Source: a virus (taxonomy: Duplodnaviria > Heunggongvirae > Uroviricota > Caudoviricetes). From it: 44,726 bases of DNA. The DNA is taken from IMG/VR virus record IMGVR_UViG_2802429225_000004. One strand, 5' to 3'. The notes under the pieces were generated by a model. The model did not search any database, had not been told where the DNA came from, and saw only the letters and a list, made by a program, of their open reading frames with translations. This document shows positions 21,162 to 39,530 of this stretch, one piece after another. Made by a program: the position numbers and the translations under genes. How positions within the stretch are numbered: the stretch's first letter is position 1; every line of letters begins with the position of its first letter.

Positions 21162-23049
21162 TGCAGCCGGTGCGATAGCTACAGGGCTTTTATCTCTCAA
21201 TATTCCGGTTCCACTGACGACGGTTCAGTGGGCTGATCAACATTATTATCTGCCGAAAGAATCTTCATACACTCCCGGACAATGGGAAACCCTGCCGTTT
21301 CAGGTTGCCATTATGAACAGCATGGGAAATGACCGGATCCGCACCGTTAATCTGATTAAATCGGCGCGCGTTGGTTACACCAAAATGCTGTTGGGGGTGG
21401 AGGCTTATTTTATTGAGCATAAATCCCGTAACAGTCTGCTTTTTCAGCCAACAGATTCTGCGGCAGAAGATTTCATGAAATCTCATGTTGAGCCAACGAT
21501 CAGGGATGTCCCTGCATTGCTGGAGCTGGCTCCATGGTACGGAAGAAAGCACCGCGATAATACACTTACCCTGAAGCGTTTTTCCTCCGGCGTGGGGTTC
21601 TGGTGCCTGGGCGGTGCCGCAGCTAAAAACTACCGTGAAAAATCTGTGGATGTGGTCTGCTATGACGAACTCTCCTCGTTTGAACCGGATGTGGAAAAAG
21701 AAGGCTCGCCGACGCTGCTTGGCGATAAACGTATCGAAGGCTCGGTATGGCCTAAATCCATACGCGGCTCAACGCCGAAAATTAAAGGCTCCTGCCAGAT
21801 TGAGAAAGCCGCGAATGAATCTGCGCATTTCATGCGGTTTTATGTCCCTTGCCCTCATTGCGGGGAGGCCCAGTATCTGAAGTTTGGCGATGATGCGACG
21901 CCGTTTGGCCTGAAATGGGAGAAGGGTAAACCGGAAACGGTGTATTACCTGTGTGAACATAATGGCTGTGTGATCCGGCAGTCGGAACTTGACCAGACCG
22001 ACGGGCGCTGGATTTGTGACAATACCGGGATGTGGACGCGCGACGGCCTGGCATTTTACAGCGCCGGTGATGAGGAGATGCCGCCACCGCGCTCAATCAC
22101 GTACCACGTGTGGACAGCGTACAGTCCGTTCACCACCTGGGTACAGATTGTTTATGACTGGCTGGATGCGCTGAAGGATCCGAACGGTGTTAAGACGTTT
22201 ATTAACACCACGCTCGGGGAGCCCTATGAAGAGGCCGTGGCAGAAAAACTGAGCTTTGAGTTGTTGCTGGAAAAAGTCTGCCACTATGGTGCGCAGGTTC
22301 CCCTGCGGGTGGTTTACCTGACCGCCGGGATCGACTCCCAGAAAGATCGCTATGAAATTTATGTCTGGGGCTGGGCTCCCGGCGAAGAAGCCTTTCTGAT
22401 TGATAAGCAAATTATCATGGGGCGACCGGAAGACGAGGACACCCTTAAACGTGTTGATACGGTGATCCGGAAAAAATATCGTCATGCTGACGGTACTGAA
22501 ATTTCCATTTCCCGTGTCTGCTGGGATACCGGTGGTATCGACCAGGACATTGTGTATCAGCGTTCCAGGAAACACGGCACTTTTTTTGTGCTTCCCATAA
22601 AAGGGGCATCGGTGTACGGCAAGCCGGTGATCACCATGCCCAAAAAGCGCAACCAGCGTGGTGTGTTTTTGTGTGAGGTGGGCTCCGATACCGTCAAGGA
22701 AATGCTGTACGCCCGTTTTGCCCTGCCAGTGGTCTCTGTCAGTGAAGCCGCCCCGTATACCTTCCGTTTTCCGGATAACCCCGACATTTTTTCGGAAGAA
22801 GAGGCGCGTCAGATCGTGGCGGAAGAGCTGGTGGAGAAGGTGGTTAATGGCAGGGTGAAACTGCTGTGGGATAAAAAAGGGCGACGCAACGAAGCCCTCG
22901 ACTGCCTGGTATATGCCTATGCTGCCCTGCGTATTTCAGTTCAGCGGTGGCAGCTGGATCTTGAAGCACTGGCCCGTGCCAGAAGAGATGAGCAGGACGA
23001 CGATGAGATGAGTCTGGAAGAAATCGCGGCTGCACTGAGTGGAGGATAA
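21133..23049 (+). CDS. A: Terminase large subunit (lambda gpA-like)
   Basis: Extensive similarity to remembered lambda gpA across the protein ([44 protein letters not shown]). Confidence 0.9.
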
Positions 23050-23052
23050 AGA

Positions 23053-23262
23053 ATGGTTTATACGCATGAAATGCTTTGTGATGCCCGTCGGGCATTACAT
23101 GAACTGATGATCGGACGTGCTGTGGTTTCCGTCAGTAAGGACGGGCGTCAGGTTCAGTATTCGCGGGCGACGATTGGTGAACTACGCCAGTATATTAAAG
23201 AGCTGGAAAGTGCGCTGGGCGTATCCGGACGGCGTTGTGCCCCGGCAGGAGTGGGGCTGTGA
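23053..23262 (+). CDS. W: Head-tail joining protein gpW-like
   Basis: 69 aa; pattern ARRALHELM.G..V..V.KDGR.V....A.I.EL..YI.ELE resembles lambda gpW. Confidence 0.8.
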   Translation: MVYTHEMLCDARRALHELMIGRAVVSVSKDGRQVQYSRATIGELRQYIKELESALGVSGRRCAPAGVGL

Positions 23263-24830
23263 ACGGGGAACTGGTGGATCTGCACGGGCAGCCATTGCGG
23301 CAGAGTATGGGATATTCCGGAGGGGGTACCGGATTTGGCGGGCAGCTTGCGGAATGGTTGCCTGCACCGGAAAGTGCCGATGTGGCGCTCTTACCTTCCA
23401 TTCAGCTGGGTAACGCCCGTGCGGATGATCTGGTCCGTAACAACGGTATTGCCGCAAATGCAGTGGAAATTCATAAAGACCATATCGTCGGGCACATGTT
23501 TCGCCTGAGCTACCGGCCCAACTGGCGCTGGCTGGGGATGTCGGAAGCTGATTCGCATGCCTTTATTGAAGATGTGGAGGCGGCGTGGATGGAATATTGC
23601 GATCCTGTGTTTGGTTCGATGGATGTGGAGGGGCGTCGCTCGTTTACCGAATTTATTCGTGAAGGGGTGGGCGTTCATACGTTTAACGGTGAAATTTTTG
23701 TCCAGCCCGTATGGGATACGGAATCCACGTCATTATTCCGGACGAAATTCAAGACCATCAGCCCGAAACGTGTCAGTACGCCCGTTTATGGCATCGGCGA
23801 TCGTTTTATGCGTGCCGGGGTGGAAATCAACCGGTACGGAAAAGCACTGGCCTACCATGTTCAGGAAGATGACAGGCCCGGTTACGGTGTCAGCAACTGG
23901 ACGCGGATTGCGGCGACGCTGCCCTCCGGGCGACCGGGAATGATCCATGTGTTTCAGCCGCAGGAGGACGGGCAGACGCGCGGGGCCAACCAGTTTTATT
24001 CTGTCATGGAGCGCCTCAAGATGCTCGACACACTGCAGGCCACGCAACTGCAGTCGGCGGTGGTGCGGGCGATGTATGCCGCGACGATTGAATCCACACT
24101 GGATTCGGAAAAAGCATTTGAATATATCGCCGGGGTGGGAGACGGCGGAAAAAATCCCCTGAACACCATCATGAAAGGCTATGCGCGTTATTACGCCACC
24201 AATACGGTAAAACTGGGCGGGGTCCGTATTCCGCATCTTTACCCGGGGGATTCACTGAATCTGCAGACAGCGCAGAATGCAGATAATGGTTTCTCTGAAC
24301 TGGAAAAGGCGCTGTTACGTTACATTGCTGCCGGGCTGGGGGTGTCCTATGAACAGCTTTCCCGTGATTATTCACAGGTCAGTTATTCCAGTGCCAGGGC
24401 ATCCGCCAATGAGTCGTGGCGGTATTTTATGGGCAAACGAAAATTTGTGGCCAGTCGACTGGCATCACAGATGTTTGCCTGCTGGCTGGAGGAAGCTCTT
24501 ATTCGCGGTGTGATTCGCCCGCCGAAATCCCGTTTTTCATTCTGGGAGGCCCGTTCCGGATGGTGTCGTGCCGAGTGGATTGGTGCCGGTCGCATGGCGA
24601 TTGATGGCCTTAAGGAAGTGCAGGAAGCGGTGATGCGTATTGAAGGTGGTTTAAGCACGTACGAGAAAGAGCTGGCCCTGATGGGCGATGACTATCAGGA
24701 GATTTTCCGCCAGCAACTGCGTGAAAGCCAGGAGCGACAGGCAGCGGGTCTTCCCCGCCCCATCTGGATAAAGGACACGTTTCAGCAGCAGATCCGACAG
24801 ACAACGGGAGAAAAAGGTGATGCGTCGTAA
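23259..24830 (+). CDS. B: Portal protein (lambda gpB-like)
   Basis: GTG start overlapping W stop; strong similarity to remembered lambda gpB (GNARADDLVRNNG, VFQPQEDGQTRGAN, LRYIAAGLGVSYEQLSR). Confidence 0.9.
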   Translation: MNGELVDLHGQPLRQSMGYSGGGTGFGGQLAEWLPAPESADVALLPSIQLGNARADDLVRNNGIAANAVEIHKDHIVGHMFRLSYRPNWRWLGMSEADSHAFIEDVEAAWMEYCDPVFGSMDVEGRRSFTEFIREGVGVHTFNGEIFVQPVWDTESTSLFRTKFKTISPKRVSTPVYGIGDRFMRAGVEINRYGKALAYHVQEDDRPGYGVSNWTRIAATLPSGRPGMIHVFQPQEDGQTRGANQFYSVMERLKMLDTLQATQLQSAVVRAMYAATIESTLDSEKAFEYIAGVGDGGKNPLNTIMKGYARYYATNTVKLGGVRIPHLYPGDSLNLQTAQNADNGFSELEKALLRYIAAGLGVSYEQLSRDYSQVSYSSARASANESWRYFMGKRKFVASRLASQMFACWLEEALIRGVIRPPKSRFSFWEARSGWCRAEWIGAGRMAIDGLKEVQEAVMRIEGGLSTYEKELALMGDDYQEIFRQQLRESQERQAAGLPRPIWIKDTFQQQIRQTTGEKGDAS

Positions 24831-26298
24831 TTTATCGCATATTGCCGCCATGGCATTTAATGAGCCGCTTTTACTGGAACCCGCCTATGCGCGGGTTTTC
24901 TTTTGCGCGCTGGGTAAAGAGATAGGGGCCGGCAGTCTTGCCGTTCCTCAGCAGGCTGTTCAGCTTGATGCTGATGGTATGCAACTGGCTGTGACTGACT
25001 ATATGGCGGGCGGTCAGCGTCCGGCGAAGAGTTACCAGGTGAAGAATGGCATTGCCATTCTTCCGGTGAGCGGCACGCTGGTGCATAAACTGGGTACCCT
25101 GCGGCCTTACTCCGGCATGACAGGCTATGACGGTCTGACTGCTCGTCTTCAGATGGCGGTGAATGATCCGGATGTGCGCGGCATTTTGCTGGATATCGAC
25201 AGCCCGGGCGGTCAGGCTGCCGGGGCGTTTGACTGTGCTGACATGATTTACCGTCTGCGGGAACAGAAGCCCGTGTGGGCGCTGTGTAATGACATGGCCT
25301 GTTCAGCCGCCATGTTGGTGGCGGCAGCCTGTACGCGTCGGCTGGTCACACAGACGGCAAAAATTGGTTCGATTGGCGTGATGATGGCGCACACCAGTTA
25401 CGAGAAACAACTGGCACAGGAAGGGGTGGACATCACGCTGATTTACTCCGGGCAGCACAAGGTTGACGGCAACAGTATTCAGGCATTGCCGGCAGGTGTG
25501 CGTGCAGATTTTCAGCGCCGTATTGATGAGACCCGCCGGATGTTTGTCGACAAGGTGGCGCTTTATACGGGGCTGAGTTCAGAGGCGGTGATGAATACCG
25601 AGGCTGCCGTTTATGACGGTCAGGCAGGCATTGATGCAGGCCTGGCTGATCAACTGATTAATGCTGCAGATGCCGTTGAAGTGATGGTTTCTGCACTGAA
25701 TGACTCTGTTACGAAGGAGAATGCAATGACTGTTAAAAATCTCACCGTTGCTGAAGCGGTGGCCCAGGAAAATCAGCGCGTGATGGGGATCCTGAATTGT
25801 CAGGAGGCGAAAGGGCGCGAGCAACTGGCGCAAATGCTGGCAGGTCAGCTAGGAATGACGGTTGAGCAGGCGAAAGCGTTTCTGGCGGCAGCCCCTGCTG
25901 CCAGTGCTGCAGGCACAGGCGATCAGATTATGGCGTTGCCGGAAGCAAAAGGGCGTGAACAACTCGCGCAGGCGCTGGCTGAACAGCCGGGAATGACCGT
26001 TGACCAGGCAAAAACGTTACTGGCGGCGGCACCGGTTGCTGGTTCTGCAAGTGTCGGCGATCAGATTATGGCACTGCCCGAGGCGAAAGGGCGCGAGCAA
26101 CTTGCACAGGCGCTGGCAGAACAACCGGGAATGACGGTGGCGCAGGCGAAAACGTTGCTGGCAGCCGCACCGGCGGCATCGCAACCGTCACAGGAAACAC
26201 TTTTTGATCGCTTTATGGCACAGCATGCCACCAGTTCGGTTTCCGGTGGCGGAACTGCCGGGCGCGGGGAAGAAGACCTGCTGATGAGTATGCCGTAA
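24817..26298 (+). CDS. C: Minor capsid protein C / prohead protease-scaffold (lambda gpC-like, ClpP/S49 fold) with repeat-containing C-terminal region
   Basis: Similarity to remembered lambda gpC (HIAAMAFNEPLLLEPAYARVFFCAL, PVSGTLV, TGSIGVMMAH, ITLIYSG.HKVDGN). Confidence 0.85.
   Translation: MMRRNLSHIAAMAFNEPLLLEPAYARVFFCALGKEIGAGSLAVPQQAVQLDADGMQLAVTDYMAGGQRPAKSYQVKNGIAILPVSGTLVHKLGTLRPYSGMTGYDGLTARLQMAVNDPDVRGILLDIDSPGGQAAGAFDCADMIYRLREQKPVWALCNDMACSAAMLVAAACTRRLVTQTAKIGSIGVMMAHTSYEKQLAQEGVDITLIYSGQHKVDGNSIQALPAGVRADFQRRIDETRRMFVDKVALYTGLSSEAVMNTEAAVYDGQAGIDAGLADQLINAADAVEVMVSALNDSVTKENAMTVKNLTVAEAVAQENQRVMGILNCQEAKGREQLAQMLAGQLGMTVEQAKAFLAAAPAASAAGTGDQIMALPEAKGREQLAQALAEQPGMTVDQAKTLLAAAPVAGSASVGDQIMALPEAKGREQLAQALAEQPGMTVAQAKTLLAAAPAASQPSQETLFDRFMAQHATSSVSGGGTAGRGEEDLLMSMP
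25804..26217 (+). repeat. Three tandem 138-bp (46-aa) in-frame repeats within the gpC-like gene C-terminal region
   Basis: Units start at 25804, 25942, 26080; peptide repeat ALPEAKGREQLAQALAEQPGMTV.QAKTLLAAAP... Confidence 0.8.
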
Positions 26299-26337
26299 GC
26301 GGTATCCGGAATTCAGATAAATCAGGAGACTGAAAAA

Positions 26338-26673
26338 ATGATTAAAACCACCACGGAAAAGCGTGCAGATGTGCGCATTTTTGCCGGAAGCGATCCGGCG
26401 CATACCGCAACAGCCACCAGTGGTATCAGTGCTGCCACACCTGCACTGACGCCACTGATGGTGGATGACGCCACCGGAAAACTGGTTGTCTGGGATGGTC
26501 AGAAAGCCGGAACGGCTGTGGGGGTGCTGGCTCTGGCGCTTGCCGGGACCGAGCCCACGCTGACGTACTACAAAAGCGGTACGTTTGCCACTGAGTCGCT
26601 GGTCTGGCCTGGTTCGGTGGATGCGGTGAAAAAAGCCAACGCATTTGTGGGAAGTGCCATCAGCCACGCCTGA
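26338..26673 (+). CDS. D: Head decoration protein (lambda gpD-like)
   Basis: 111 aa; SDPAHTATA...TPLM.D...KLV.WDG resembles lambda gpD. Confidence 0.85.
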   Translation: MIKTTTEKRADVRIFAGSDPAHTATATSGISAATPALTPLMVDDATGKLVVWDGQKAGTAVGVLALALAGTEPTLTYYKSGTFATESLVWPGSVDAVKKANAFVGSAISHA

Positions 26674-26742
26674 TGGTGAAGTGATTAACTGAAAAAACGG
26701 GTCGCGATGCGGCCCGTTTGTGTTTCTGAAGGAAAATAAATT

Positions 26743-27771
26743 ATGGGGTTATTTACCACGCGTCAGTTACTCGGGTACACCGAGCAGAAAGTGAAATTTC
26801 GTGCGCTGTTTCTTGAGCTGTTCTTTCGTCGCACGATCACTTTCCATACTCAGGAAGTCATGCTGGATAAAATTACCGGCAAAACACCGGTTGCGGCGTA
26901 TGTGTCTCCGGTGGTGTCAGGCAAAGTGCTGCGCAGCCGTGGTGGTGAAACCCGCGTGTTACGTCCCGGTTATGTAAAACCAAAACACCGCTTTGATTAT
27001 CAGCAGGCTGTAGAACGTCTTCCGGGGGAAGATCCGGCCCGCCTTAATGACCCGGCTTACCGCCGTCTGCGTATTCTGACGGACAATCTGAAACAGGAAG
27101 AGCAGGCGATTGTGCAGGTGGAAGAAATGCAGGCAGTCAGTGCTGTTCTGCAGGGTAAATACACCATGAGCGGCGAGCAGTTTGAGACGGTGGAAGTGGA
27201 TTTTGGGCGTTCTGCCGCCAATAACATTACGCAGGCTGGCGGACGCGAATGGTCGAAGCAGAATGCTGATACCTTCGATCCGACGCATGATCTGGATGCG
27301 TACTGCGATTTCGCTTCCGGCACCATCAATATCGCGATTATGGACGGCACGGTCTGGCGTATGCTGAACGGTTTTAAACTGTTCCGTGAAAAACTGGATA
27401 CCCGCCGTGGCTCCAAATCTGAGCTGGAAACGGCACTGAAAGACCTGGGCTCCGTGGTTTCCTTTAAAGGCCATTACGGCGATCTGGCAATTGTGGTGGC
27501 GAAGACAACGTATGTTGACGAAAACGGGGATGAACAGCGTTATCTGCCGGAAGGTACACTGATTCTGGGGAACACTCAGGCGGAAGGCGTCCGTTGTTAT
27601 GGTGCCATTCAGGATAATCAGGCACTGAGTGAAGGGATCACCTCTGCGATTCGTTATCCGAAACACTGGGAGGAAGTGGGGGATCCTGGTTGCGAATATA
27701 CCATGACGCAGTCTGCGCCGTTGATGGTGCTGCCGGATCCGGATGCGTTTGTGGTGGTTCAGGTGAAATAA
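26743..27771 (+). CDS. E: Major capsid protein (lambda gpE-like)
   Basis: 342 aa; high similarity to remembered lambda gpE (PGYVKPKH, QVEEMQAVSAVL.GKYTM, DTRRGS.SELETA.KDLG). Confidence 0.9.
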   Translation: MGLFTTRQLLGYTEQKVKFRALFLELFFRRTITFHTQEVMLDKITGKTPVAAYVSPVVSGKVLRSRGGETRVLRPGYVKPKHRFDYQQAVERLPGEDPARLNDPAYRRLRILTDNLKQEEQAIVQVEEMQAVSAVLQGKYTMSGEQFETVEVDFGRSAANNITQAGGREWSKQNADTFDPTHDLDAYCDFASGTINIAIMDGTVWRMLNGFKLFREKLDTRRGSKSELETALKDLGSVVSFKGHYGDLAIVVAKTTYVDENGDEQRYLPEGTLILGNTQAEGVRCYGAIQDNQALSEGITSAIRYPKHWEEVGDPGCEYTMTQSAPLMVLPDPDAFVVVQVK

Positions 27772-27821: not shown

Positions 27822-28199
27822 ATGACAAAAGAGCAGATGACGGAACGCCTTCAGGAACTGGCAGTGATTCTGGGGCGTGAAGCAGATATTTCAGGTTCAA
27901 AAGCCGATCTTGAGCAGCGCCTGGCGGAATGGGAAGAAGAAGCAGAATGTATTCATCAGACTGATGAGATTTCTGATGAAATTTCCGAAGTACAGAAAAC
28001 AGAGAAAGTTACGCAGAATGCAACTGATCTGGTTCGGGTAAGAATGAAAGTGACGGCTCACCTTTGTGCTTTTGATGAGCACGGCACCCGCCGGGTGGAA
28101 TTTGCTCTGGCAGGTCAAATTGTCAGTCTGGAGTCTCATCGCCTTGCCAGCGTCATTGCTGCCGGAGTGGCTGAGGTTTGCCATGCTGTCGATGTCTGA
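27822..28199 (+). CDS. FI: DNA packaging protein FI-like
   Basis: MTKEQMTERLQELAVILGRE... resembles lambda FI N-terminus; GGGAGAG RBS. Confidence 0.7.
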   Translation: MTKEQMTERLQELAVILGREADISGSKADLEQRLAEWEEEAECIHQTDEISDEISEVQKTEKVTQNATDLVRVRMKVTAHLCAFDEHGTRRVEFALAGQIVSLESHRLASVIAAGVAEVCHAVDV

Positions 28200-28557
28200 T
28201 AATGATTTTGACCGGGCTATGGCAAAAGCTGATCACGAGATACTCAGGGCGATGGGGCGTGAGTTTCATATTCAGGCCGGTGGGCGTTTTGTCCATATCT
28301 GGGGCGTACTGGATGAGACTGAGTCTGATGTTCTCCTGAAAAAAGGAGGAGGGATGATTCATGATGTCGCTCCACGGTTGTTTGTTTGCACCCGTGATAT
28401 CGAAGGTGTATCCAGGAAAAGTCGGGTTGAGTGTGATGGTGTTGTTTACTGGGTGGTAAGTATTGGCCCGGACGACAATGGTTTCTGTTATCTGACGCTG
28501 GCGCGTGGGGAACCGGGTACGTCACTGCCGGTTATTGACGGGTGGAGTAAAAAATAA
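28192..28557 (+). CDS. FII: Head completion protein FII-like
   Basis: MSDNDFDRAMAKADHEILRAMG... aligns with remembered lambda FII; start overlaps FI stop. Confidence 0.7.
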   Translation: MSDNDFDRAMAKADHEILRAMGREFHIQAGGRFVHIWGVLDETESDVLLKKGGGMIHDVAPRLFVCTRDIEGVSRKSRVECDGVVYWVVSIGPDDNGFCYLTLARGEPGTSLPVIDGWSKK

Positions 28558-28578
28558 ACTTCATAAGGAGATATCGCA

Positions 28579-29262
28579 ATGGCGCGGGCATCACGCATCC
28601 GGCAAAATCTGTTGTTTGATATCGACGTCGAAGAATTGCGGGATATTGCGGCGCTGGCTGGCGCAACGCAGCACCAGTTTCGTCTGGCCTATTCCCGCGC
28701 ACTGAAGCGAACGGCATCAAAAATGCGCATGAAGGCGCTTGCGGAACTGAAAACCGGCCTGGCTCCCCGCAAAATGGACATGCTGCGCAGGCGTCTTTTT
28801 TTCACTCGCATTACCCGGGGTAATGCAATGGATGAAGCCCGTTTCTGGTTTGGTCTTAATGCGATCAAGATAAAGGATCTACGCGGACGCATTCGTGGAC
28901 GACGTGTTCGTCATCATGATCTCCGTGACCCGGTAACCGGGCGGTTTATCAAAGAGAATCGTGTCAGACGGCGTCGCCGCAAAGCCAGCGATCCGGTTTT
29001 TGAACCCAACGGTTCGTTTTTATCTCCCACCGCATATGAAAACGGGCTGGTGATACGTAGCCGCAAAGAGAACCGACGAACAATCATCATCAAAAATCCG
29101 GAAACCGGGCGCGTCCGGGAGGCTGAAGCCGGTATTTATGCCCGTACAATGGATTATGTTGAAGATGTGGCTTTTGCAGAATGTCTGGAAATTTTTATGA
29201 AAGAGTTCGAATCGGACATCCGGCGACGTGCGAAGTACGGCATTACCGTGACCCCCCGATAA
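28579..29262 (+). CDS. Hypothetical virion protein at head/tail junction (possible tail completion/neck protein)
   Basis: 227 aa; strong RBS; function inferred by position only. Confidence 0.4.
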   Translation: MARASRIRQNLLFDIDVEELRDIAALAGATQHQFRLAYSRALKRTASKMRMKALAELKTGLAPRKMDMLRRRLFFTRITRGNAMDEARFWFGLNAIKIKDLRGRIRGRRVRHHDLRDPVTGRFIKENRVRRRRRKASDPVFEPNGSFLSPTAYENGLVIRSRKENRRTIIIKNPETGRVREAEAGIYARTMDYVEDVAFAECLEIFMKEFESDIRRRAKYGITVTPR

Positions 29263-29278
29263 AAAACGTGAGGACACA

Positions 29279-29842
29279 ATGGCTGAACCCTTATGCATGG
29301 CATCCTGGCACGCTGCTGTGCTGGGTGCCCTGAAAGAACTTAAATGGATCAGGGATGCGGATACCTACCCTGAACGGGTTACGCAACTGGTCACTCCGGC
29401 GGTGTTTCTGGCGGTCGATGGCTGGGATGCGAAAAACAATGCAGACGGACAGATGACGGTGGTGTTGTCTGCTGCGCTGTGGGTGCTGGTTGATCGTGCC
29501 GGTGAGCCGGAGAACGAAAAAAAGGAAGTGGCTGCAAAGCCGGATATTTTTATCCGTTCGGCAGCCGCCGATCTGACGCACTGGCTCGACGGACAGACGT
29601 TCGGGCTGGCAAATGTGGAGCCTGCCATTTTTATATCAGCGGACGCAGATGAAACCGATCCGCGCCTGGATGATTATCTGGTCTGGCAGATTTCATTTAA
29701 CCAGACGGTGACGTTTGGTATGGATCTCTTTGCCACGGATAACCTGCCGCTACAGCGGGCCTGGCTGGGTGTTGCACCGGAGATCGGGCGACAGCATGTG
29801 GATGATTACCGGCTGATTTTTGAGAGAAAGCCACGTGAATGA
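29279..29842 (+). CDS. Hypothetical virion protein at head/tail junction
   Basis: 187 aa; RBS GAGGA; function inferred by position only. Confidence 0.4.
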   Translation: MAEPLCMASWHAAVLGALKELKWIRDADTYPERVTQLVTPAVFLAVDGWDAKNNADGQMTVVLSAALWVLVDRAGEPENEKKEVAAKPDIFIRSAAADLTHWLDGQTFGLANVEPAIFISADADETDPRLDDYLVWQISFNQTVTFGMDLFATDNLPLQRAWLGVAPEIGRQHVDDYRLIFERKPRE

Positions 29843-30455
29843 GGTTCTGGGGGATTTACAGCGCCGCCTGGCAAATATGGTCCGGCGCGGGGTGATCCAC
29901 TCGGTGCGGCTGGACGGTGGTTTTCCGGAATGCCGCGTGGATCTGGGGGATATTGTGACCACCTGGCTGCCATTATGTCAGGGGTTTGCCGGAAAAAACA
30001 GGGCAGATTTTGAGCCGTTTGCTGTGGGTGATGCGGTTACGGTGCTGTCAGAGGCCGGGGAGCTGAATAACGGTCGTGTTTTTCCCGGCTGGAATACCGG
30101 TGAGGCACCGGCTCCGCAGGGCAGCGACAGTGAGCACATCACCCGTTACGGAGATGGTACTGAAATTTGCTATAACCGGGAGACGCACTCACTGACCATT
30201 ATTCTGGCGGAAGGGGGCACCTATGCCATTACCGGGAATGGTGTACTGGACGGAAACGTCATGATTTCAGAAAACCTGATCGTGAACGGACGCACGATGG
30301 TTGAAGGTGAAGTGGTGGTGAAAAGTGATTTTTATGCAAAAGGAGAGGTGACGGATAAATCCGGCAGTATGAGCCGGATCCGGGAAACGTTTAATGGACA
30401 CGACCATCCCGGAGACAGTGGGGGAACCACGAAAGTACCGAATCAGAAAATGTGA
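29820..30455 (+). CDS. Baseplate spike/assembly protein gpV-like (P2 V family)
   Basis: N-terminal OB-like region and C-terminal HDHPGDSGGTT motif match remembered P2 gpV. Confidence 0.7.
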   Translation: MRESHVNEVLGDLQRRLANMVRRGVIHSVRLDGGFPECRVDLGDIVTTWLPLCQGFAGKNRADFEPFAVGDAVTVLSEAGELNNGRVFPGWNTGEAPAPQGSDSEHITRYGDGTEICYNRETHSLTIILAEGGTYAITGNGVLDGNVMISENLIVNGRTMVEGEVVVKSDFYAKGEVTDKSGSMSRIRETFNGHDHPGDSGGTTKVPNQKM

Positions 30456-30493
30456 CCTGCTGCGGCAGGTTTTTTTATGTCCGGAGAATGCAA

Positions 30494-31963
30494 ATGGGGC
30501 AATTACATGGTGTGGAAACCATCGAGCTGACAGCAGGCACGGTGGCGGTAACCACAATAGAGACAGCCATTATTGGGGTGGTGGGAACCGCGCCGCAGGC
30601 TGCCGGGGCTGTGGCAGCAACACTGACAGCGGGAACGCCGTTGCTGGGTAACGAGCTGACCTTTACGGCAAAAGCGGCGGGGCGGAGCGGAAATACCATT
30701 ACCGTTATTGCTGAACAGGCTTTACAGGCAGCAAAAGAAAAAAGTGCGGGTGCGGTCCCCACGTCAGCAAAATGGGAAAACGGAAGCCTGTTGATTTGGC
30801 TTGGATGCAGTGAAGAGGGGGCCGGTAATGCCACCGTCAGCGATGTTGTGACGGCAGTGAATGGCGTGGCTGGGGTCGGGGTGAGTGCCACCGGCAGCGG
30901 TGACGGTATTGTGTCGCCGTTTTCCGGCACACTGAGTGGCGGTGAAGATGAACCGTTTCCGCTGAACACGCCAGTGGCGATGGCGGGAACAACGGCGCTT
31001 TCACGTCTGGGGCTCACCGGAACACTGAAGCAGGCGCTGACGGAGATTAACGACCAGCGTAACGCGCTGTCGGTGATCGTCCGGGTGGAAGAAAAAACGA
31101 AGCCGGAAGAGCAGCGTGCTGCCATTCTTGCGGGGATCAGCATGCTGTCATCGGCAAAATCCGTCACCACGTATCAGCCACGTATTGTGATTGCACCAGG
31201 ATTCAGTGAAGACGATGCGGTAGGTAAGGCACTGGAAACTGTGGCCGGAAAACTGCGGGCAGTGGCGTACGTGGATTGTGCTGCGGGCGCGACACTGCAG
31301 GAAGTGGTGCAGCGTCGTCAGTCTTACGGTGCCCGGACTGAACTACTGCGCCCGCGTGTGCAGGTCAGTAATGCAGAGGGGCAACTGGTGTATCGCCCGT
31401 ATTCGGCGTTTGCTGCCGGACTGCGTGCCCGTATTGACTATGAAAAAGGGTGGTGGTGGAGCAAATCAAACCAGGAGGTTTACAACATCCTCGGTGTTGA
31501 GCAGGTGGATGAATTTATCCTCGGTGAGCGTAACTGCGATGCCAACCTGCTTAATATGCAGAATGTCTCCACCCTGATCCGCCGCGCCGGATTTAAACAC
31601 TGGGGAAACCGGCTGTGCTCGTCCCATCCTCAGTGGCATTTCGAGTCCGTCCGCCGTACTGCGGATGTGATTGAAGACAGTATTCAGGAAGCGATGCTGG
31701 CATATGTTGACCGCCCGCTTGATCGTCAGAATGCGGACGACATCATTGGCACCATTAATGCGTATATGCGCCGTCTGGTGGCAGAAGGTGCCATCTTCGG
31801 GGGGCGGGCATGGCTGGATCCGGAACTGAATACCGCCGAAACGCTGGCAGCCGGTGAACTGTACATCAACTATGACTTCGGTCCCAAATCGCCGACTGAA
31901 CTTATCAGCATGCGGGTGAGCGTCAACAACGAATACGGCATTAAGGAGATGAAGGCAACATGA
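30494..31963 (+). CDS. Contractile tail sheath protein (P2 FI / Mu L family) with an extra internal region
   Basis: N-terminus HGVETIELTAGT...TAIIGVVGTA resembles P2 FI; large size with roughly 100-aa insertion near N-terminus. Confidence 0.8.
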   Translation: MGQLHGVETIELTAGTVAVTTIETAIIGVVGTAPQAAGAVAATLTAGTPLLGNELTFTAKAAGRSGNTITVIAEQALQAAKEKSAGAVPTSAKWENGSLLIWLGCSEEGAGNATVSDVVTAVNGVAGVGVSATGSGDGIVSPFSGTLSGGEDEPFPLNTPVAMAGTTALSRLGLTGTLKQALTEINDQRNALSVIVRVEEKTKPEEQRAAILAGISMLSSAKSVTTYQPRIVIAPGFSEDDAVGKALETVAGKLRAVAYVDCAAGATLQEVVQRRQSYGARTELLRPRVQVSNAEGQLVYRPYSAFAAGLRARIDYEKGWWWSKSNQEVYNILGVEQVDEFILGERNCDANLLNMQNVSTLIRRAGFKHWGNRLCSSHPQWHFESVRRTADVIEDSIQEAMLAYVDRPLDRQNADDIIGTINAYMRRLVAEGAIFGGRAWLDPELNTAETLAAGELYINYDFGPKSPTELISMRVSVNNEYGIKEMKAT

Positions 31964-32466
31964 GCAGTAAAAACACATTACGGGCCTGGACTTTTTTCCG
32001 CCAGGGGATCCGTATTCAGGGAGCGCATGAGTTCACGCCACCCACGCTGTCCATAACCACCACCGATTTACGCACCGGGGCACAGGATGCGCCCACGCCG
32101 GTTGACGACGGCATGGAGGCGCTGACCTGCCAGATTAAATTCTATGGTCTGGATACAGACATGCTGTCCAGTCTCGGATTTGTCAGTGGCAGCCGCTCCC
32201 GCTTCACGGCCTATCAGGGCTATCTGGCAAACGGCACCGCGCTGGGGACCACCGAAGAAATCGAAGGTTTTGTGAAAACGGTGACGCCGGATGCGCGCGG
32301 AAACAGCGGGCTGTCAGAAAATGCGGTGACAGTGGAAATCGCGGTGAATTATTACCGTCAGACGCTGGAGGGGATCGAACTCATTATGATTGATACCGAG
32401 CGTTTTGAGCGTCGGATCAACGGCGTGAATGTTCTCGCCGGCCTGTCGGCAAAAGTGCGTCTCTGA
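31960..32466 (+). CDS. Tail tube protein (P2 FII family)
   Basis: 168 aa; ATGA overlap with sheath gene; synteny sheath-tube. Confidence 0.75.
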   Translation: MSSKNTLRAWTFFRQGIRIQGAHEFTPPTLSITTTDLRTGAQDAPTPVDDGMEALTCQIKFYGLDTDMLSSLGFVSGSRSRFTAYQGYLANGTALGTTEEIEGFVKTVTPDARGNSGLSENAVTVEIAVNYYRQTLEGIELIMIDTERFERRINGVNVLAGLSAKVRL

Positions 32467-32484
32467 GCACTGATTAACGCATAA

Positions 32485-32506
32485 CGGCCTGCGGGCCGTT
32501 TTTTTT
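32485..32506 (+). terminator. Intra-operon rho-independent terminator after tube gene
   Basis: CGGCC-TGCG-GGCCG hairpin followed by T8. Confidence 0.5.
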
Positions 32507-32518
32507 AAGGAGCAGATT

Positions 32519-32818
32519 ATGAATATTCCGGGTGAAACCCGCACCATCACACTGTACACACCTGTCACTCTGGGGGGCGGGGCTGTGCTGGAACACATCA
32601 CCATGCGCGAACCGCTGGTGCGCGATCGCATTGCCTTCACCAAAGACCGGGGAACAGAGGAGGAAAAAGAGGCGCGTATGATTGCGCAGCTTTGTAATCT
32701 GAGTGAGCAGGATATCTGGCTGCTGACCGCAGCGGATTATGCCCAGCTGACGGATGCCTTTAATGTTTTTATGCTGCCACCCGGGAAGCGACCGAAACCG
32801 AAATCTTCAGAGGGTTAA
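32519..32818 (+). CDS. Tail assembly chaperone gpE-like (probable E/E' frameshift gene)
   Basis: 99-aa ORF between tube and tape measure; both alternative frames stay open across the gap to the tape-measure start. Confidence 0.5.
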   Translation: MNIPGETRTITLYTPVTLGGGAVLEHITMREPLVRDRIAFTKDRGTEEEKEARMIAQLCNLSEQDIWLLTAADYAQLTDAFNVFMLPPGKRPKPKSSEG

Positions 32819-32920
32819 GGTTTCTCGGGCGGCGGCTGCATTTTCCTCTTTCCGATTATCTGTCCATGCCGTTCAGTGTGTTTACGGCATTTTTACTGGA
32901 TGAAGTGGAGGCGGTAAAAC

Positions 32921-34570
32921 GTGGGAAGCGTAAGTCAGAATCTTAAGGCCACCGTGTCGTTCGGGGGCAAACTGGACAGTTCGTGGCGTCGTTCGGCGAC
33001 GGATCTGCGAAAAAATCTGCAGGATGTGGAGCAGCAGGCTGCGCGTTTGCGTAAGGAGCAGGCAGAGCTGGCAGCAGAAATGAAGCGGGCGGCGCTGGCA
33101 GGGAAACGTTTTAAGTCGATGGAGGATGAATACGCCCGGCTCACTGCTGAAATTAAGAAAGCGGATGCGGCCCAGAAAAAACTGAACCGGAGCCTTGAGC
33201 GTCGCGATCGGCTCGGACGTTTTATGGGGAAGGGAAAAAGTCTGCTTGCCGGAACCGGCAAATTTGCCTGGAATGCCGGTCTGGCGATGGGGGGCGGTGC
33301 CGTGACCACGGCACTTGGTGCGCTGATTGCTCCGGCAGCCATGAATGCGCAGACGGCTGAAACGGCGGGTAAAGCGACTGCGTATGGCGTGGATACCCGT
33401 ACGTACATGAACTGGGACGCCCTGGCAAAACAGTACGATATGACCGGCGATAATATCGGAGATCTGTTTGAGGAATACCTGCATAAGGCCGGGGAATATA
33501 AACAAAATGGCAAGCAGAGTTCGCTTTCTGACGCCTTTGAAACGCTGGGATTTAAGGAGGGCGATCTTGCCGGACTGAGTGATTCGTCGCAGTTCGAAAA
33601 AATTATCGACAGGGCGCTGTCTCTGGAAGATGAATCAAAGGCATCTTTTGCGCTGGATGCATTGTTTGGTGGTGAAGCCAGTAAACTGCTGATGCTGATC
33701 AAACGTTCAGGAAAAAGTTTTCAGGAACTGCTGGCTGAGCAGGATAAATATAATCTGGTGACAAAAGAGGGGGTGGCTGGCGCACTTGCCGGAAACAAGG
33801 CTGTTTCTGATTTGCAGCAGGTTTTTTCTTCTGCGGTTGCAGAAATTTCCGGACAACTGGGCGCAGAGCTGGCTCCCGCTATACAACAGACAGCGGGTGA
33901 CCTGGCAGAGTGGTTTAAAGGTGGAGGCATTAAAAAGGTTGTGTCTTTTCTGAGGGACACCCTGTATCCGGCAGCCCTGAAGTTTGGCGAAGGCGTCATT
34001 TTTGTCGGAAAAATCATTTTTGCAGCAGCCAAAAAGCTCTCCTGGTTGTTACCGGATGAACAGGGCGATCAGAAGCAGATTCTGGAGTATGTCGGGCGTG
34101 GTGACATGACCGCTGCCCGGACAGTGGCCCGGAACAGCGGGCAGGATGCGTGGCTTGACGGGCAACTGAAAAATAATCCCGATTTTGAAAAGAGTGTCCG
34201 TGAAAAATACAACGCCGCGAAGGGCTTTATGGGCATTGTGGATACGGATGCGTTTCATGAATCGGTGAACAGTTACCTCACGCCGGAAAAAACGTTCGAT
34301 TTTTCGCTGCCGGCAGGATCCGCCGGAAAACAGGATGATCCTTTTGCCAGTGCGGGGGCATGGCAGGCTGCCGTGCAGGCTATTCCTGTTGAGGGCGGAC
34401 AGTCCGGCGCACAGCTGAATGACAACAGTGTGAAGAATTATAACTTCAACATTGTTGCGCAGCCCGGACAGAGCGAACAGGGTATTGCGGACGCCATTGC
34501 CGGAATGACGAAAAACAACCCGGCCTTCAGTGGTAATAATGCGTTGTGGGATGGAGGAAGTGTCTGGTGA
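32921..34570 (+). CDS. Tail tape measure protein
   Basis: 549-aa helical/Ala-Gly-rich protein in tape-measure position; GTG start with GGAGGCGG RBS. Confidence 0.7.
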   Translation: MGSVSQNLKATVSFGGKLDSSWRRSATDLRKNLQDVEQQAARLRKEQAELAAEMKRAALAGKRFKSMEDEYARLTAEIKKADAAQKKLNRSLERRDRLGRFMGKGKSLLAGTGKFAWNAGLAMGGGAVTTALGALIAPAAMNAQTAETAGKATAYGVDTRTYMNWDALAKQYDMTGDNIGDLFEEYLHKAGEYKQNGKQSSLSDAFETLGFKEGDLAGLSDSSQFEKIIDRALSLEDESKASFALDALFGGEASKLLMLIKRSGKSFQELLAEQDKYNLVTKEGVAGALAGNKAVSDLQQVFSSAVAEISGQLGAELAPAIQQTAGDLAEWFKGGGIKKVVSFLRDTLYPAALKFGEGVIFVGKIIFAAAKKLSWLLPDEQGDQKQILEYVGRGDMTAARTVARNSGQDAWLDGQLKNNPDFEKSVREKYNAAKGFMGIVDTDAFHESVNSYLTPEKTFDFSLPAGSAGKQDDPFASAGAWQAAVQAIPVEGGQSGAQLNDNSVKNYNFNIVAQPGQSEQGIADAIAGMTKNNPAFSGNNALWDGGSVW

Positions 34571-34653
34571 GTGTGGGTTCGGTTATTGCTCTCGCTGAAG
34601 ACAGCCTTCAGCGTTACAACAGTTATCTCCGTGGTGCTGCAGATGCCAGAGTC

Positions 34654-35046
34654 ATGCTGATGCTGGGGGATTTCGCCTTTTCCGTGGATACCACGGCATA
34701 TAACCAGCTGACCCGTGAGGCCGGGTGGACCTGGAGCGAGCAGTCGCGTATCGGGCAGCAGAGTCTGCTGCAGTACACCGGGAAAAACGGGCGAACCGTC
34801 CGCCTTGAAGGGGAATCGCACGCCTTTTTGGGGAAGTCAGGGACGGAGGCGGTGAACACGCTGTATGACCTGGCAAATAAGGCTGAGCCGCAACTGCTGG
34901 TCAGTGGAGAAGGTGATGTGCTGGGATGGTGGGTGGTGGAGCGTTTTTCTGATTCCACCGACTGCTTTTTACCTGGTGGTGGGCACCGTAACAAAAAGTG
35001 GAGTCTGGAGCTGAAACATTATGCCGACGATCTGGATAACCCGTGA
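34654..35046 (+). CDS. Tail protein gpU-like (P2 U family)
   Basis: MLMLGDFAFSVDTTAYNQL... resembles P2 gpU N-terminus; ORF opens upstream at 34546, start uncertain. Confidence 0.6.
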   Translation: MLMLGDFAFSVDTTAYNQLTREAGWTWSEQSRIGQQSLLQYTGKNGRTVRLEGESHAFLGKSGTEAVNTLYDLANKAEPQLLVSGEGDVLGWWVVERFSDSTDCFLPGGGHRNKKWSLELKHYADDLDNP

Positions 35047-35236
35047 CGGGGATGTGCTTGATGCGATTTGCGCCACGCATTACGGCACGGAAAATCTGTC
35101 TGCCGTGCTCACTCTTGTGCTGGAGGCCAATCAGGGGTTGGCAGAGAAGGGCGCGGTTTATCCGGCGGGGATCCGGATTGTGTTGCCTGAAATCACACAA
35201 CAGGTGTCTGAGTCGCCATACAGCCTGTGGGATTAA
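35021..35236 (+). CDS. Tail protein X-like (P2 gpX family)
   Basis: 71 aa; GDVLDAICATHYG...VLEANQGLAE.GAV.P.G resembles P2 gpX. Confidence 0.6.
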   Translation: MPTIWITRDGDVLDAICATHYGTENLSAVLTLVLEANQGLAEKGAVYPAGIRIVLPEITQQVSESPYSLWD

Positions 35237-35244
35237 GGGAGGAG

Positions 35245-36447
35245 ATGATGACGTCATTATCCGAACAGCTGCAGGCAATAAATGCTGCGTATCAGGAGTC
35301 CCTGAACAGTGAGGAAAAACAGGAAACCATTGCCACGACCGTCCGGGAATTCTGCCCGGCGTATCGGGTGACAGCTGAAGGGCGGGATATCACGCGGGTG
35401 CTGGCCCGTTATCTTGTGGATATCACTCTGACGGATTACGGCGGAGCCACCGCCAAATCTGATGAACTGAAAATCACGCTGCTTTCTGAAACACTGCCCC
35501 TGCCGACAAAGGGGGCGCGTCTGCGGGTGGCGATGGGGTTTAACGGTAATCTGGTGGACAAGGGCTGGTTTGTGGTGTGCGGCGTGAGCAGCAGCGGCCC
35601 GCCGCGGCGGATCGAGATTTATGCTACCGCTGCCCCCATGAATGCGGAAAAGCAGTCCGGTGATGTGCTGAATCAGAAAACACGCAGCTGGGATAATCTC
35701 ACGCTGGGTGATCTGGTGAAAACTGTTGCCACGGAAAACGGACTGAAGGCCCGGGTGGCGGAGAAGCTGGCGGGGATCCGCATTACCCATGTGGATCAGG
35801 TGGCAGAATCGGATGCCAGCCTGTTGTCCCGCCTTGCCCGGACGTATAACGCCGTCAGTAAACCTGCCGGAGGTTACTGGTTGTTTCTGGAGCAGGGTGC
35901 CGGAACCACCGTATCGGGCGCGCCCCTGAAGACCGTGACGCTGACACCTTCCGTGGTGTCATCCTGGAATTATCAGGAAGGTGAACGGGGGAGCTCTGGC
36001 GGCGGTGGAGATAAAAAAAAGAAGAAAGAAAAAATCACGGTTCGTTATTTTGACAAGGCTGACGGGCGAACCAAAACGGCAACCGTGGAGCATGACGGCT
36101 CGTCTGTAACCAGTCCGTACACGCAACCGGAAAAGGAAACGGCTGAACAACAGGCAAAATCGAAAAAAACACAGGCGCAACGCAACAGCCGGAAAATGAC
36201 GCTGACAGGGCCGTGCCGTCCTTCATATGTTGCCATGACCGCCGAATCCGGCGTGGTGACATCCGGATTTGGTAAGCGGGAAGATCGCCGCTGGCTCGTG
36301 GAATCACTGTTTTTTTCCCTCTCATCTTCAGGCTTTACCTTCACGTTTAATCTGGTGGCTGAAATCAAAAACGCCAGTAAATCAGACAAAAAATCCGGTG
36401 ATAAAACAGGGCCGGATTATTTTGGTATCGGATCGGGAAAAAAATAA
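35245..36447 (+). CDS. Tail protein gpD-like (P2 late control D family)
   Basis: About 400 aa in gpD position; GGGAGG RBS; contains an A8 homopolymer at 36013-36020. Confidence 0.65.
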   Translation: MMTSLSEQLQAINAAYQESLNSEEKQETIATTVREFCPAYRVTAEGRDITRVLARYLVDITLTDYGGATAKSDELKITLLSETLPLPTKGARLRVAMGFNGNLVDKGWFVVCGVSSSGPPRRIEIYATAAPMNAEKQSGDVLNQKTRSWDNLTLGDLVKTVATENGLKARVAEKLAGIRITHVDQVAESDASLLSRLARTYNAVSKPAGGYWLFLEQGAGTTVSGAPLKTVTLTPSVVSSWNYQEGERGSSGGGGDKKKKKEKITVRYFDKADGRTKTATVEHDGSSVTSPYTQPEKETAEQQAKSKKTQAQRNSRKMTLTGPCRPSYVAMTAESGVVTSGFGKREDRRWLVESLFFSLSSSGFTFTFNLVAEIKNASKSDKKSGDKTGPDYFGIGSGKK

Positions 36448-36449
36448 TC

Positions 36450-36803
36450 ATGAATGGTGTGAACTGCCGGACAGGGAAGCGTCTGTCCGGTGCGGCGCAT
36501 CTGCGCCAGTCTGTCAGCGATATTCTGAACACGCCAGTGGGAAGCCGTGTTCTGGTCAGGGATTACGGCAGCGATCTTTTTGAATTGCTGGACTCTCCCC
36601 GGGATGACCTGTTGAGGCTGCGCATAATAGCTGCCACGGCGACGGCGCTGGCACGCTGGGAGCCCCGGCTGAAAGTGTCAAAAGTGATCGTAACGTTTCC
36701 GGAGGATGAGGCCGGATGTGTGGTGGATATCATGGGGACGAATACGGAAACCGGTACACAGGTGACAACAGGAGGAATAACCGTTTATGGCAGAAAGTTA
36801 TGA
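36450..36803 (+). CDS. Baseplate wedge protein gpW/gp25-like
   Basis: 117 aa; GPW_gp25-like pattern (SVSDILNTPVGSRVLVRDYGSDLFELLD). Confidence 0.75.
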   Translation: MNGVNCRTGKRLSGAAHLRQSVSDILNTPVGSRVLVRDYGSDLFELLDSPRDDLLRLRIIAATATALARWEPRLKVSKVIVTFPEDEAGCVVDIMGTNTETGTQVTTGGITVYGRKL

Positions 36804-37695
36804 TGTGATCAATCTTTCGGATTTGCCCGTACCGGATGCCATCGTGGTGCCTGATGCGGCGGTGATTTTCGGGGCCTGGCTGGCACGTCTGCGCGAACTG
36901 GATCCTGAATTTGATGCCCTGGTGGAATCCGACCCGGCTTACAAGCAGGGCGAAGTGACAGCCTTTCAGCTTACCCTGGCTTTTCAGCGGGTGAATGATG
37001 CTGTGCGGGCCGTTTTTCTGGCAAGTGCGCAGAATGCCGATCTCGATCAGATTGGCGCGGCGTTCAATGTCGGACGTATGGTGATTGTTCCGGCAAATCC
37101 GGATGCCGTGCCTCCGACGGATGCGGTTATGGAAGAGGACGACGCTTTTCGCGAACGCATTCAGTTGTCCTGGTCGCAACTGAATACTGCAGGCGCCCGC
37201 AATGCTTATCGTTTTCATGCCCGCTCTGCTGATGAAAATGTGCTGGATGCTGATGCCTATGGTCCGGAAGAGCACGGGCGTGCGGGGGAGGTGGATGTCT
37301 ACGTATTGTCCCGTGAAGGAAATGGCACTGCCAGCGAGGCGTTGCTGGATGCGGTCAGTGCGCGGCTGAATGCTGATGAAATTCGTCCGCTGACGGATTT
37401 TGTGACGGTGAAAAGCGCCATTATTAATGACTATACCGTGACGGCTGAGCTGGAAATACCGGACGGTCCGGATGCCGGTGAAGTGCTGGAAAATGCGAAA
37501 AACACGCTGATGTCTTATACCCGGCTGGCAAACCGGATTAATGGCATGGTGCCGCTGTCCGCTATTTACGCAGCACTGCAACAGTCCGGTGTGGCGCGGG
37601 TTATTCTGTCCAGTCCCCGGGCCGATATTGAACCGGCAACCGGTACGGCTCCCCGTTGTGCCGCCGTTAATGTGACGCGCAGAGAGATGTGGTGA
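36787..37695 (+). CDS. Baseplate assembly protein gpJ-like
   Basis: 302 aa, matches size and position of P2 gpJ. Confidence 0.75.
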   Translation: MAESYDVINLSDLPVPDAIVVPDAAVIFGAWLARLRELDPEFDALVESDPAYKQGEVTAFQLTLAFQRVNDAVRAVFLASAQNADLDQIGAAFNVGRMVIVPANPDAVPPTDAVMEEDDAFRERIQLSWSQLNTAGARNAYRFHARSADENVLDADAYGPEEHGRAGEVDVYVLSREGNGTASEALLDAVSARLNADEIRPLTDFVTVKSAIINDYTVTAELEIPDGPDAGEVLENAKNTLMSYTRLANRINGMVPLSAIYAALQQSGVARVILSSPRADIEPATGTAPRCAAVNVTRREMW

Positions 37696-38249: not shown

Positions 38250-38250
38250 C

Positions 38251-39528: not shown

Positions 39529-39530
39529 TT

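Follow-up and report, generated by a model that had tools for sequence, protein, structure and literature searches.

The window analysed here, a stretch of 44,726 nucleotides from a Caudoviricetes record (IMG/VR IMGVR_UViG_2802429225_000004), is very probably a lambdoid E. coli prophage whose late operon would build a myovirus from head, neck and tail units, in which a canonical neck, a recombination joint at the 3' end of the head-closure gene and a presumably derived exchange of two tail-gene blocks can be recognised. A first-pass annotation had described a lambda-type head joined to a P2-type contractile tail, and this mosaic is borne out by Pfam and BLASTP searches, which reproduced all of its gene assignments (Table 1). 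The arrangement is not an assembly artefact, since positions 27000-31000 are present in four complete E. coli chromosomes at 94-96% identity. E. coli NY1601 has a prophage 95% identical to this one. No paper describing this particular type of E. coli prophage was found, a literature search combining "lambda-like head" with "P2-like tail" being empty. The region is real but ordinary, with no new mechanism and no new protein class, and the locus illustrates modular phage evolution cleanly in a natural setting.

Table 1. Late-region features of the window, with the Q antiterminator gene
Feature	Position	Strand	Basis or remark
Q antiterminator	15359-16054
Lambda-type head module (Nu1, A, W, B, C, D, E)	20613..27771	+	Pfam, far above cut-offs
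Phage_Nu1	20613-21161		Pfam
GpA_ATPase + GpA_nuclease	21091-23049		Pfam
gpW (Ad1 adaptor)	23053-23262		Pfam
Phage_portal_2 (B, portal)	23235-24830		Pfam
Peptidase_S49 (C, protease/scaffold)	24817-26298		Pfam
HDPD (D, decoration)	26338-26673		Pfam
Phage_cap_E (E, major capsid)	26743-27771		Pfam
FI, DNA-packaging chaperone	27822..28199	+	Pfam Packaging_FI, 57.6 bits
FII-type head-closure protein (Hc1)	28186..28557	+	Pfam Phage_attach, 42 bits; phrog_82 "head closure Hc1", 2e-25
X1, putative divergent gpZ-family tail completion protein (TCP/Ne1), 227 aa	28579..29262	+	phrog_27 "tail completion or Neck1", 5e-24
X2, predicted tail terminator protein (Tc1), contractile-tail kind, 187 aa	29279..29842	+	Predicted fold
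gpV-type baseplate central spike	29835..30455	+	TIGR01644 phage_P2_V, 85 bits (cut-off 46.75); Pfam Phage_base_V, 31.3 bits
Terminator-like hairpin + T7 run between V and sheath	30454..30480	+	Pattern scan; -11.9 kcal/mol, z -1.96
P2 "F-operon" block: sheath, tube, E, T, U, X, D (hub)	30494..36447	+	Pfam
Sheath	30494-31963		Pfam; start ATG 30494
Tube	31960-32466		Pfam
Phage_TAC_7 (chaperone E)	32519-32818		Pfam; E' in -1 frame
Tape measure protein (T)	32921-34570		Position and size; no Pfam match
GpU, tail X, GPD, GPW_gp25, Baseplate_J, Tail_P2_I, tail fibre, Caudo_TAP	after T, ending at 40076		Pfam
P2 "V-operon" remainder: W, J, I (baseplate wedge), H (tail fibre), G (fibre chaperone)	36450..40076	+	Pfam

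The head and packaging side of the late region comprises nine Pfam families above their cut-offs in the lambda order Nu1-A-W-B-C-D-E-FI-FII, and BLASTP found its proteins to be 46-66% identical to those of lambda, except for FI (29%) and FII (35%). Translation of FII could also begin further upstream, at 28144 or 28066. An FI ORF extended upstream was matched by phrog_2353, which raised the idea that E and FI are fused through a programmed frameshift; this was dropped, as the two genes are separated by a strong hairpin with a T run and a slippery heptamer is lacking. Hairpins also stand after D, V and the tube gene.

On the tail side, 11 of the 13 P2-type proteins have homologues 24-47% identical to those of P2, E being recognised by Phage_TAC_7 and T by position only. 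According to BLASTP, the products FI, FII, U, X and D of P2 show 24-44% identity to their counterparts in the first tail block of the window, W, J, I, H and G are 36-47% identical, and P2 gpV matches over 206 aa, its full length, with 32% identity (E 9e-28). For V, the most likely start codon is GTG 29835, which gives an 8-nt overlap with X2, rather than TTG 29820. The window does not belong to the Peduoviridae as a whole, the head being of the lambda type, the order of blocks being different and P2_Phage_GpR and Phage_tail_S finding no match; in P2 itself the head (Q P O N M L) and the neck (gpL) are unrelated to those of the window, and the gpR and gpS families are used. P2 also has three Ogr-dependent late operons, whereas the window would have one Q-dependent transcript. 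A promoter scan of positions 26500-33000 found sigma-70-like sites to be no commoner than in shuffled sequence, so that there is no sign in it of separate P2-style operon promoters.

Two ORFs, here X1 and X2, lie between FII and V. They had been reported as unrecognised, and indeed both exist at those positions, lack a direct Pfam or NCBIfam match and are labelled "hypothetical protein" in RefSeq, but remote matches to gpZ and to tail terminators take them out of the unrecognised class. X1 has no Pfam match even at E<=10, does not reach the gathering threshold of PF06763 (Minor_tail_Z), and a PDB sequence search with its profile returned noise only. Shallow profiles (A1, A2) gave no signal in hhalign against the single sequences of P2 gpR, P2 gpS, lambda gpZ and lambda gpU; a deeper profile (A3) including the X1 family and remote relatives was aligned with lambda gpZ over 131 columns with a probability of 95.5% and an E value of 1.5e-8. 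Minor_tail_Z was matched by 4 of 23 relatives of X1 and then by 23 of 49, and the gene of phage WO that occupies the same position matches it with 46.6 bits and is a genuine member of the family. Directly after FII is also where gpZ is found in lambda. The AF2 model of X1 (pLDDT 78), in which a beta domain stands between a long helix at the N-terminus and another long one at the C-terminus, gave weak fold matches to proteins of the HK97 gp10 family, and this predicted architecture fits the published description of tail completion proteins, which includes a beta-domain insertion in gpZ (PMC11661146). An Arg-rich insertion is found at about residues 108-140 of X1. Through transitive profile evidence, X1 is recognised as a divergent lambda gpZ, that is, an Ne1 protein.

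As for X2, its family profile matches the collar PA0615 of the R2 pyocin (E 4e-5) and its predicted fold is that of a gpU-type tail terminator, the closest structures being two contractile-tail terminators, PA0615 and that of Mu. The confidence of the model is moderate (pLDDT 69, with one of five models folded well), and it is by this predicted fold that X2 is assigned as the tail terminator, Tc1. X2 is larger than lambda gpU, which caps a tube only, and has a conserved C-terminal region in common with the pyocin collar, the conserved C-terminus of X2 reading WLGxAPxxGxxHxxDY. The canonical order of a Type-1 neck is Ad1-Hc1-Ne1-Tc1 (PMC4362835), and all four components as defined in Virfam can be assigned in the window: Ad1 is gpW, Hc1 matches phrog_82 and Phage_attach, Ne1 matches phrog_27 and Tc1 is assigned by fold, the last three being contiguous at 28186-29842. 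The series from W through FII to X1 and X2 is thus a canonical neck. This would allow two families that are "hypothetical protein" in many Enterobacterales prophages to be named, X1 as gpZ-type tail completion protein and X2 as tail terminator. [quoted passage not shown] A predicted hexamer of X2 would then cap tube and sheath and form the surface on which FII of the filled head docks.

It could be argued that X1 and X2 are orthologues of P2 gpR and gpS, everything from X1 onwards being P2-like and the lambda/P2 boundary falling between FII and X1. In P2 the corresponding place is taken by R-S-V, a breakpoint at FII/X1 is seen at the population level, P2 gpR has been described as a terminator comparable with PA0615 (bioRxiv 10.64898/2026.09.14.750843), and gpS has been classed as Ne1 (PMC4362835). 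However, hhalign against gpR or gpS gave no signal, the P2 proteins belong to P2_Phage_GpR and Phage_tail_S whereas the X1 family links to Minor_tail_Z, and the window has Ne1 followed by Tc1 as in lambda, whereas P2 has Tc1 (R) followed by Ne1 (S), so that we consider this orthology unlikely. At a remote level the junction proteins essentially correspond to lambda Z and U, FII-Z-terminator being lambda's own order.

The position of the joint between head and tail bears on the proposal of the first-pass annotation that the two ORFs at the junction are adaptors fitting a lambda-type head to a contractile tail. In a nucleotide alignment with a prophage that has a ClpP-MCP head, identity climbs to about 96% at TGGAGTAAAAAATAA, in the 3' end of FII. 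The alignment places the recombination joint, with a crossover at this sequence, in the last five codons of FII (28543-28557, about 28543), and not downstream of X2. In the E. coli prophage L003, X1 and X2 are 96% and 93% identical to those of the window and stand behind a head with a ClpP-protease/capsid fusion, Hc1 being only 37% identical. By these comparisons the pair belongs genetically to the tail module and travels with it, and X1 and X2 are not specific lambda-head adaptors, since they are found nearly unchanged behind an entirely different head. That they are novel, dedicated adaptors was suggested by the absence of direct Pfam or NCBIfam matches, by their RefSeq label and by their location exactly between recognisably lambda-like and P2-like genes, but it becomes very improbable with X1 as a gpZ homologue, X2 with the universal terminator fold, and an Ne1 and Tc1 pair present in every phage with a Type-1 neck (PMC4362835).

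A second mosaic breakpoint is located by sequence comparison inside FI. The segment 20384-27943 shows 96.5% nucleotide identity to E. coli STEC383, in which a different neck and tail follow, and the homology stops at 27943. With regard to the joint in FII, the two Hc1 proteins, with 37% identity otherwise, have in common the short C-terminal tail GTSLPxIxxWSKK, which may be a portable determinant letting different heads dock on the same terminator. The genetic recombination joint would coincide with the physical interface at which separately assembled heads and tails are joined.

The block formed by Hc1 (FII-like), X1, X2 and V is constant across Enterobacterales prophages, in which two head types and two tail orders occur in all four combinations. 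More than 12 genomes, belonging to several genera, show the order with V ahead of the sheath gene, which is also present in the isolated Citrobacter phage Chris1 (ON041214) and Hafnia phage yong2 (MZ516527), and was hence already known. These two phages have the identical order Hc1-X1-X2-V-sheath-tube-E-T-U-X-D-W-J-I-H-G, so that the neck and tail arrangement of the window is essentially that of described phages. The sheath-to-D block is syntenic with theirs, X1 is about 55% and X2 51-55% identical, and in Chris1 V, sheath and tube are 69, 76 and 82% identical, with the same hairpin between V and sheath. Their heads differ, with a gpA/gpW/portal set and a ClpP-protease/major-capsid fusion in place of lambda C-D-E-FI, and Hc1 is about 33% identical. 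On the other hand, in the E. coli phage vB_EcoM-569R10, Vibrio phage Valp1, Wolbachia phage WO and the STEC383 prophage the head is of the lambda type (A-W-B-C-D-E, most of them also having FI and FII). Next come a gpZ-like protein, an X2-like terminator, V and a P2-type contractile tail in the canonical order V-(PAAR)-W-J-I-H-G and then sheath to D, the tail module of WO being at a different genomic location; in this group X1 and X2 are only 26-51% identical to those of the window. The tail and baseplate proteins of P2 and of the R2 pyocin of P. aeruginosa are all homologous to those of the window; in both systems V-W-J-I-H-G precedes FI...D, and the terminator or collar gene is directly upstream of V, the pyocin collar PA0615 being the closest to X2 in both sequence and fold. 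Lambda itself has a non-contractile tail (V, G/T, H...).

The spike gene had been noted to lie ahead of the sheath gene, away from the other baseplate genes. V is indeed directly upstream of the sheath gene, but it has not been displaced, as the ancestral adjacency of terminator and V is kept, an adjacency also seen in P2, the R2 pyocin, phage WO and Valp1. The comparison of gene orders suggests that V stayed in place while the sheath-to-D and W-to-G blocks exchanged places, an ancestral neck-V-(W J I H G)-(sheath...D) having given rise to neck-V-(sheath...D)-(W J I H G), a direction that we infer from outgroups rather than from a rooted phylogeny. That this order came about by decay or scrambling of a prophage that had become defective, or of a tailocin-like remnant, is most improbable, as the structural ORFs of the window are all intact and tightly packed and the same order recurs in Chris1, yong2 and the more than 12 genomes mentioned above, even though degradation is seen in some of the E. 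coli copies (in L003 the portal gene is truncated and an IS3 element has inserted, and L010 has pseudogenes in terminase, portal and sheath). The block swap probably arose once, because the sheath shows 62-76% identity to that of the window where the order is rearranged and 48-61% where it is canonical. With a single Q-antiterminated transcript covering the whole late region, such an exchange would have been tolerated.

The V/sheath junction may have arisen when two similar hairpins of the terminator-like kind recombined with each other, the one listed in Table 1 being a candidate scar. This junction is a chimera, the left flank of its hairpin matching the hairpin after V, and the right flank the hairpin before the sheath gene, of relatives with the canonical order. 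Such a signature is found at one only of the three novel junctions of the swap, the D/W junction being devoid of any. That short, paralogous hairpins with a T7 run, after V and before the sheath gene, act as recombination sites moving whole tail-gene blocks within the late operon, leaving a scar between V and sheath, is put forward as a tentative idea that we hold to be doubtful on balance, together with the related one of the FII tail as a portable docking determinant. Between Vibrio and E. coli the V-sheath hairpin has been conserved through compensatory changes.

The two open reading frames between FII and V (here X1 and X2) were presented in the first-pass annotation as unrecognised proteins; neither has a direct Pfam or NCBIfam match, but both can be recognised remotely. 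A profile of 20 X2-family members matches one solved structure, the R2 pyocin collar protein PA0615 (E 4e-5). X2, whose AlphaFold model is of moderate confidence (pLDDT 69), scored 14.6 in comparison with the same protein, 13.7 with the Mu tail terminator, 13.0 with T5 p142, 12.5 with lambda gpU and less with SPP1 gp17-like, T4 gp15, PVC Pvc16 and other proteins, terminators of contractile machines being the nearest. Together, profile match and comparisons argue that X2 is the tail terminator (Tc1). X1 has a match in PHROG 27 ('tail completion or Neck1 protein', 5e-24), and Pfam Minor_tail_Z is weakly matched by 4 of its 23 close relatives. An exhaustive profile search rendered 237 relatives, with 23 of the 49 sampled matching Minor_tail_Z, and a profile built from this wider set aligned with lambda gpZ over 131 columns (hhalign probability 95.5%, E 1.5e-8). 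The same gene position in Wolbachia phage WO is occupied by a bona fide Minor_tail_Z member (46.6 bits). Fold searches with the X1 model (pLDDT 78) gave weak matches only, those of relevance being to proteins of the HK97 gp10 family; its architecture, in which long N- and C-terminal helices flank a beta domain, agrees with what has been published on tail completion proteins, gpZ among them having an extra beta domain (PMC11661146). X1 is thus predicted to be a divergent gpZ.

With gpW and FII, X1 and X2 make up a canonical 'Type 1' neck (Ad1-Hc1-Ne1-Tc1: adaptor, head closure, tail completion, terminator), which is known in both siphoviruses and myoviruses (PMC4362835); lambda itself likewise has the order FII-Z-terminator. 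No similarity of X1 or X2 to P2 gpR and gpS was detectable by hhalign, and these P2 proteins belong to other Pfam families. The proposal of two novel proteins adapting the head to the tail is therefore not supported, the pair being of the Z and terminator type and the exact tail order of the window being present in deposited phage isolates. The main gain is that two 'hypothetical' protein families now have functional names.

The mosaic of a lambda-type head and a P2-type contractile tail was borne out by Pfam and BLASTP. Pfam reproduced exactly the gene order first read, Nu1, A, W, B, C (S49), D, E, FI and FII for the head and V, sheath, tube, E-chaperone, (T), U, X, D, W, J, I, H and G for the tail, V also passing the NCBI model phage_P2_V. 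The head proteins from Nu1 to E are 46-66% identical to those of lambda, with lower values for FI (29%) and FII (35%); the tail proteins V, FI, FII, U, X, D, W, J, I, H and G are 24-47% identical to their P2 counterparts. Such a pairing is an established combination, and phage WO has been described as consisting of head, connector/baseplate and tail modules (PMC9203015).

A tBLASTn survey of related loci rendered all four combinations of two head types and two tail orders. The rearranged order (V, sheath...D, W...G) accompanies a lambda head in the window, NY1601 and Erwinia endophytica, and a ClpP-MCP fusion head in phages Chris1 and yong2 and in Citrobacter, Enterobacter, Pantoea, Scandinavium and Tatumella prophages; the canonical order (V, W...G, sheath...D) accompanies a lambda head in Valp1, vB_EcoM-569R10, STEC383, Serratia and Cedecea, and a fusion head in Serratia rubidaea. 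The lambda head with the rearranged tail was found in this survey in prophages only, and a literature search found no paper on this pairing. The block Hc1-X1-X2-V was constant in every surveyed case, and the terminator also adjoins V in P2 (R, S, V), WO and Valp1, as it does in the R2 pyocin cluster (PA0615, PA0616). This adjacency in outgroup systems implies that V did not move. Its position ahead of the sheath gene is real, but rather than V having been displaced, the sheath...D and W...G blocks appear to have changed places. Sheath proteins are closer to that of the window in rearranged genomes (62-76% identity) than in canonical ones (48-61%), which is consistent with a single origin of the rearranged order.

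In relatives with the canonical order, two similar elements occur, each consisting of a GC hairpin, a T7 run and AT in succession; the first overlaps the V stop codon before W, and the second lies just upstream of the ribosome-binding site of the sheath gene. In the V/sheath spacer of the window, the left flank corresponds to that of the first element and the right flank to that of the second, as would be expected after recombination within the hairpin common to both; this is a possible mechanism for the swap. The D/W junction has no such element, so that hairpins do not account for the full path of the rearrangement. Relatives ranging from Vibrio to E. coli retain the pre-sheath hairpin, which shows compensatory changes. 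Terminator-like hairpins of the late operon (fold z-scores -2.0 to -4.2) would be read through under Q antitermination, and may serve attenuation, mRNA stability or stoichiometry tuning.

Features located in the window
Feature	Position	Strand	Remarks
Q antiterminator, lambda-type	15359-16054
tRNA-Thr(TGT), tRNA-Gly(TCC) genes; TerB-like fragment	16380-16533, 17117-17629		tRNA genes just 3' of Q
Tandem repeat in gene C	25803-26174		138-bp unit, 2.7 copies, 78% matches
Terminator-like GC hairpins with T runs	26695-26719, 27775-27795, 30454-30471, 32483-32500	+	directly after D, E, V and tube genes; inside Q-dependent late operon
Extended FI frame	27690-28199		open 132 nt 5' of ATG; overlaps end of E in -1 frame
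X1	28579-29262		gpZ-type (predicted)
X2	29279-29842		terminator (predicted)
V/sheath spacer	30454-30480		chimeric flanks
Tail chaperone E	32519-32818
Open -1 frame at end of E	32760-32940		runs to just past T start (32921)
Second fibre set	40100-42647		651-aa protein with lambda-stf-type 'Prophage tail fibre N-terminal' domain; DUF4376 protein
Cargo-like genes after fibres	42713-44726	-	DUF5384, glycine-zipper/TraT-like small and ORF6N-domain proteins; GC low, 0.39

Genuine crossover points emerged from comparison with other E. coli prophages. In STEC383 the head is 96.5% identical up to 27943, within FI; from there on its FI C-terminus, FII, X1, X2 and V differ, and its tail follows the canonical P2 order. 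The L003 prophage (NZ_LR882057, CPS-53-like yfdR-yfdM locus) has 28543-38172 in common at 96% identity, and its head, organised around a ClpP-protease/capsid fusion, is unrelated; nucleotide identity rises from ~55-60% to ~96% at TGGAGTAAAAAATAA, the last five codons of FII. X1 and X2 thus belong to the tail module. The joint in the DNA falls at the physical boundary between proteins assembled with the head (W, FII) and those assembled with the tail (Z-like protein, terminator), a neat case of modules being exchanged where head meets tail. The Hc1 proteins of the window and L003 (compared at 28498-28557 and 11955-12015), which face the same X1/X2 neck, are only 37% identical overall and have in common, behind different head types, the C-terminal tail GTSLPxIxxWSKK, which may contact the terminator. 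The same neck and tail module is also found in prophages with damaged heads. L003 (CPS-53/KpLE1-like) has a truncated portal gene and an IS3 insertion; no damage is apparent in its neck and tail genes as far as gpJ, and it may therefore be a remnant comprising the tail alone. In the Stx2e prophage L010 (NZ_CP080223), which adjoins stx2e, terminase, portal and sheath genes are broken.

The window is an E. coli prophage: 27000-31000 is present over its full length at 94-96% identity in four complete E. coli chromosomes, and some part of it in 116 of 5426 genomes. The copy in strain NY1601 is flanked by lambdoid early genes on one side and by zinT on the other. A holin/endolysin cassette is also carried; the TerB-like fragment 5' of the lysis genes has an NY1601 homologue annotated as a pseudogene. 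Gene C, encoding the S49 protease/scaffold, measures 1482, 1617 or 1755 bp in different E. coli prophages, which suggests a variable repeat copy number. Identity to the closest E. coli relatives is 96% for the tail proper but only 83-86% for the second fibre set, which lies 3' of P2-type H and G and is a separate mosaic segment.

Two reading frames overlap their neighbours. The match of the extended FI frame to PHROG 2353 'major head protein' (profile positions 317-478) probably arises from entries in that PHROG whose annotation was fused or stretched too far; the E/FI overlap has no slippery site, and E and FI are separated by a strong hairpin. The open -1 frame at the end of E fits the expectation for a P2-like E+E' frameshift product; no canonical XXXYYYZ site was found there in the required phase, CCCGGGA at 32780 being aligned with the codons.
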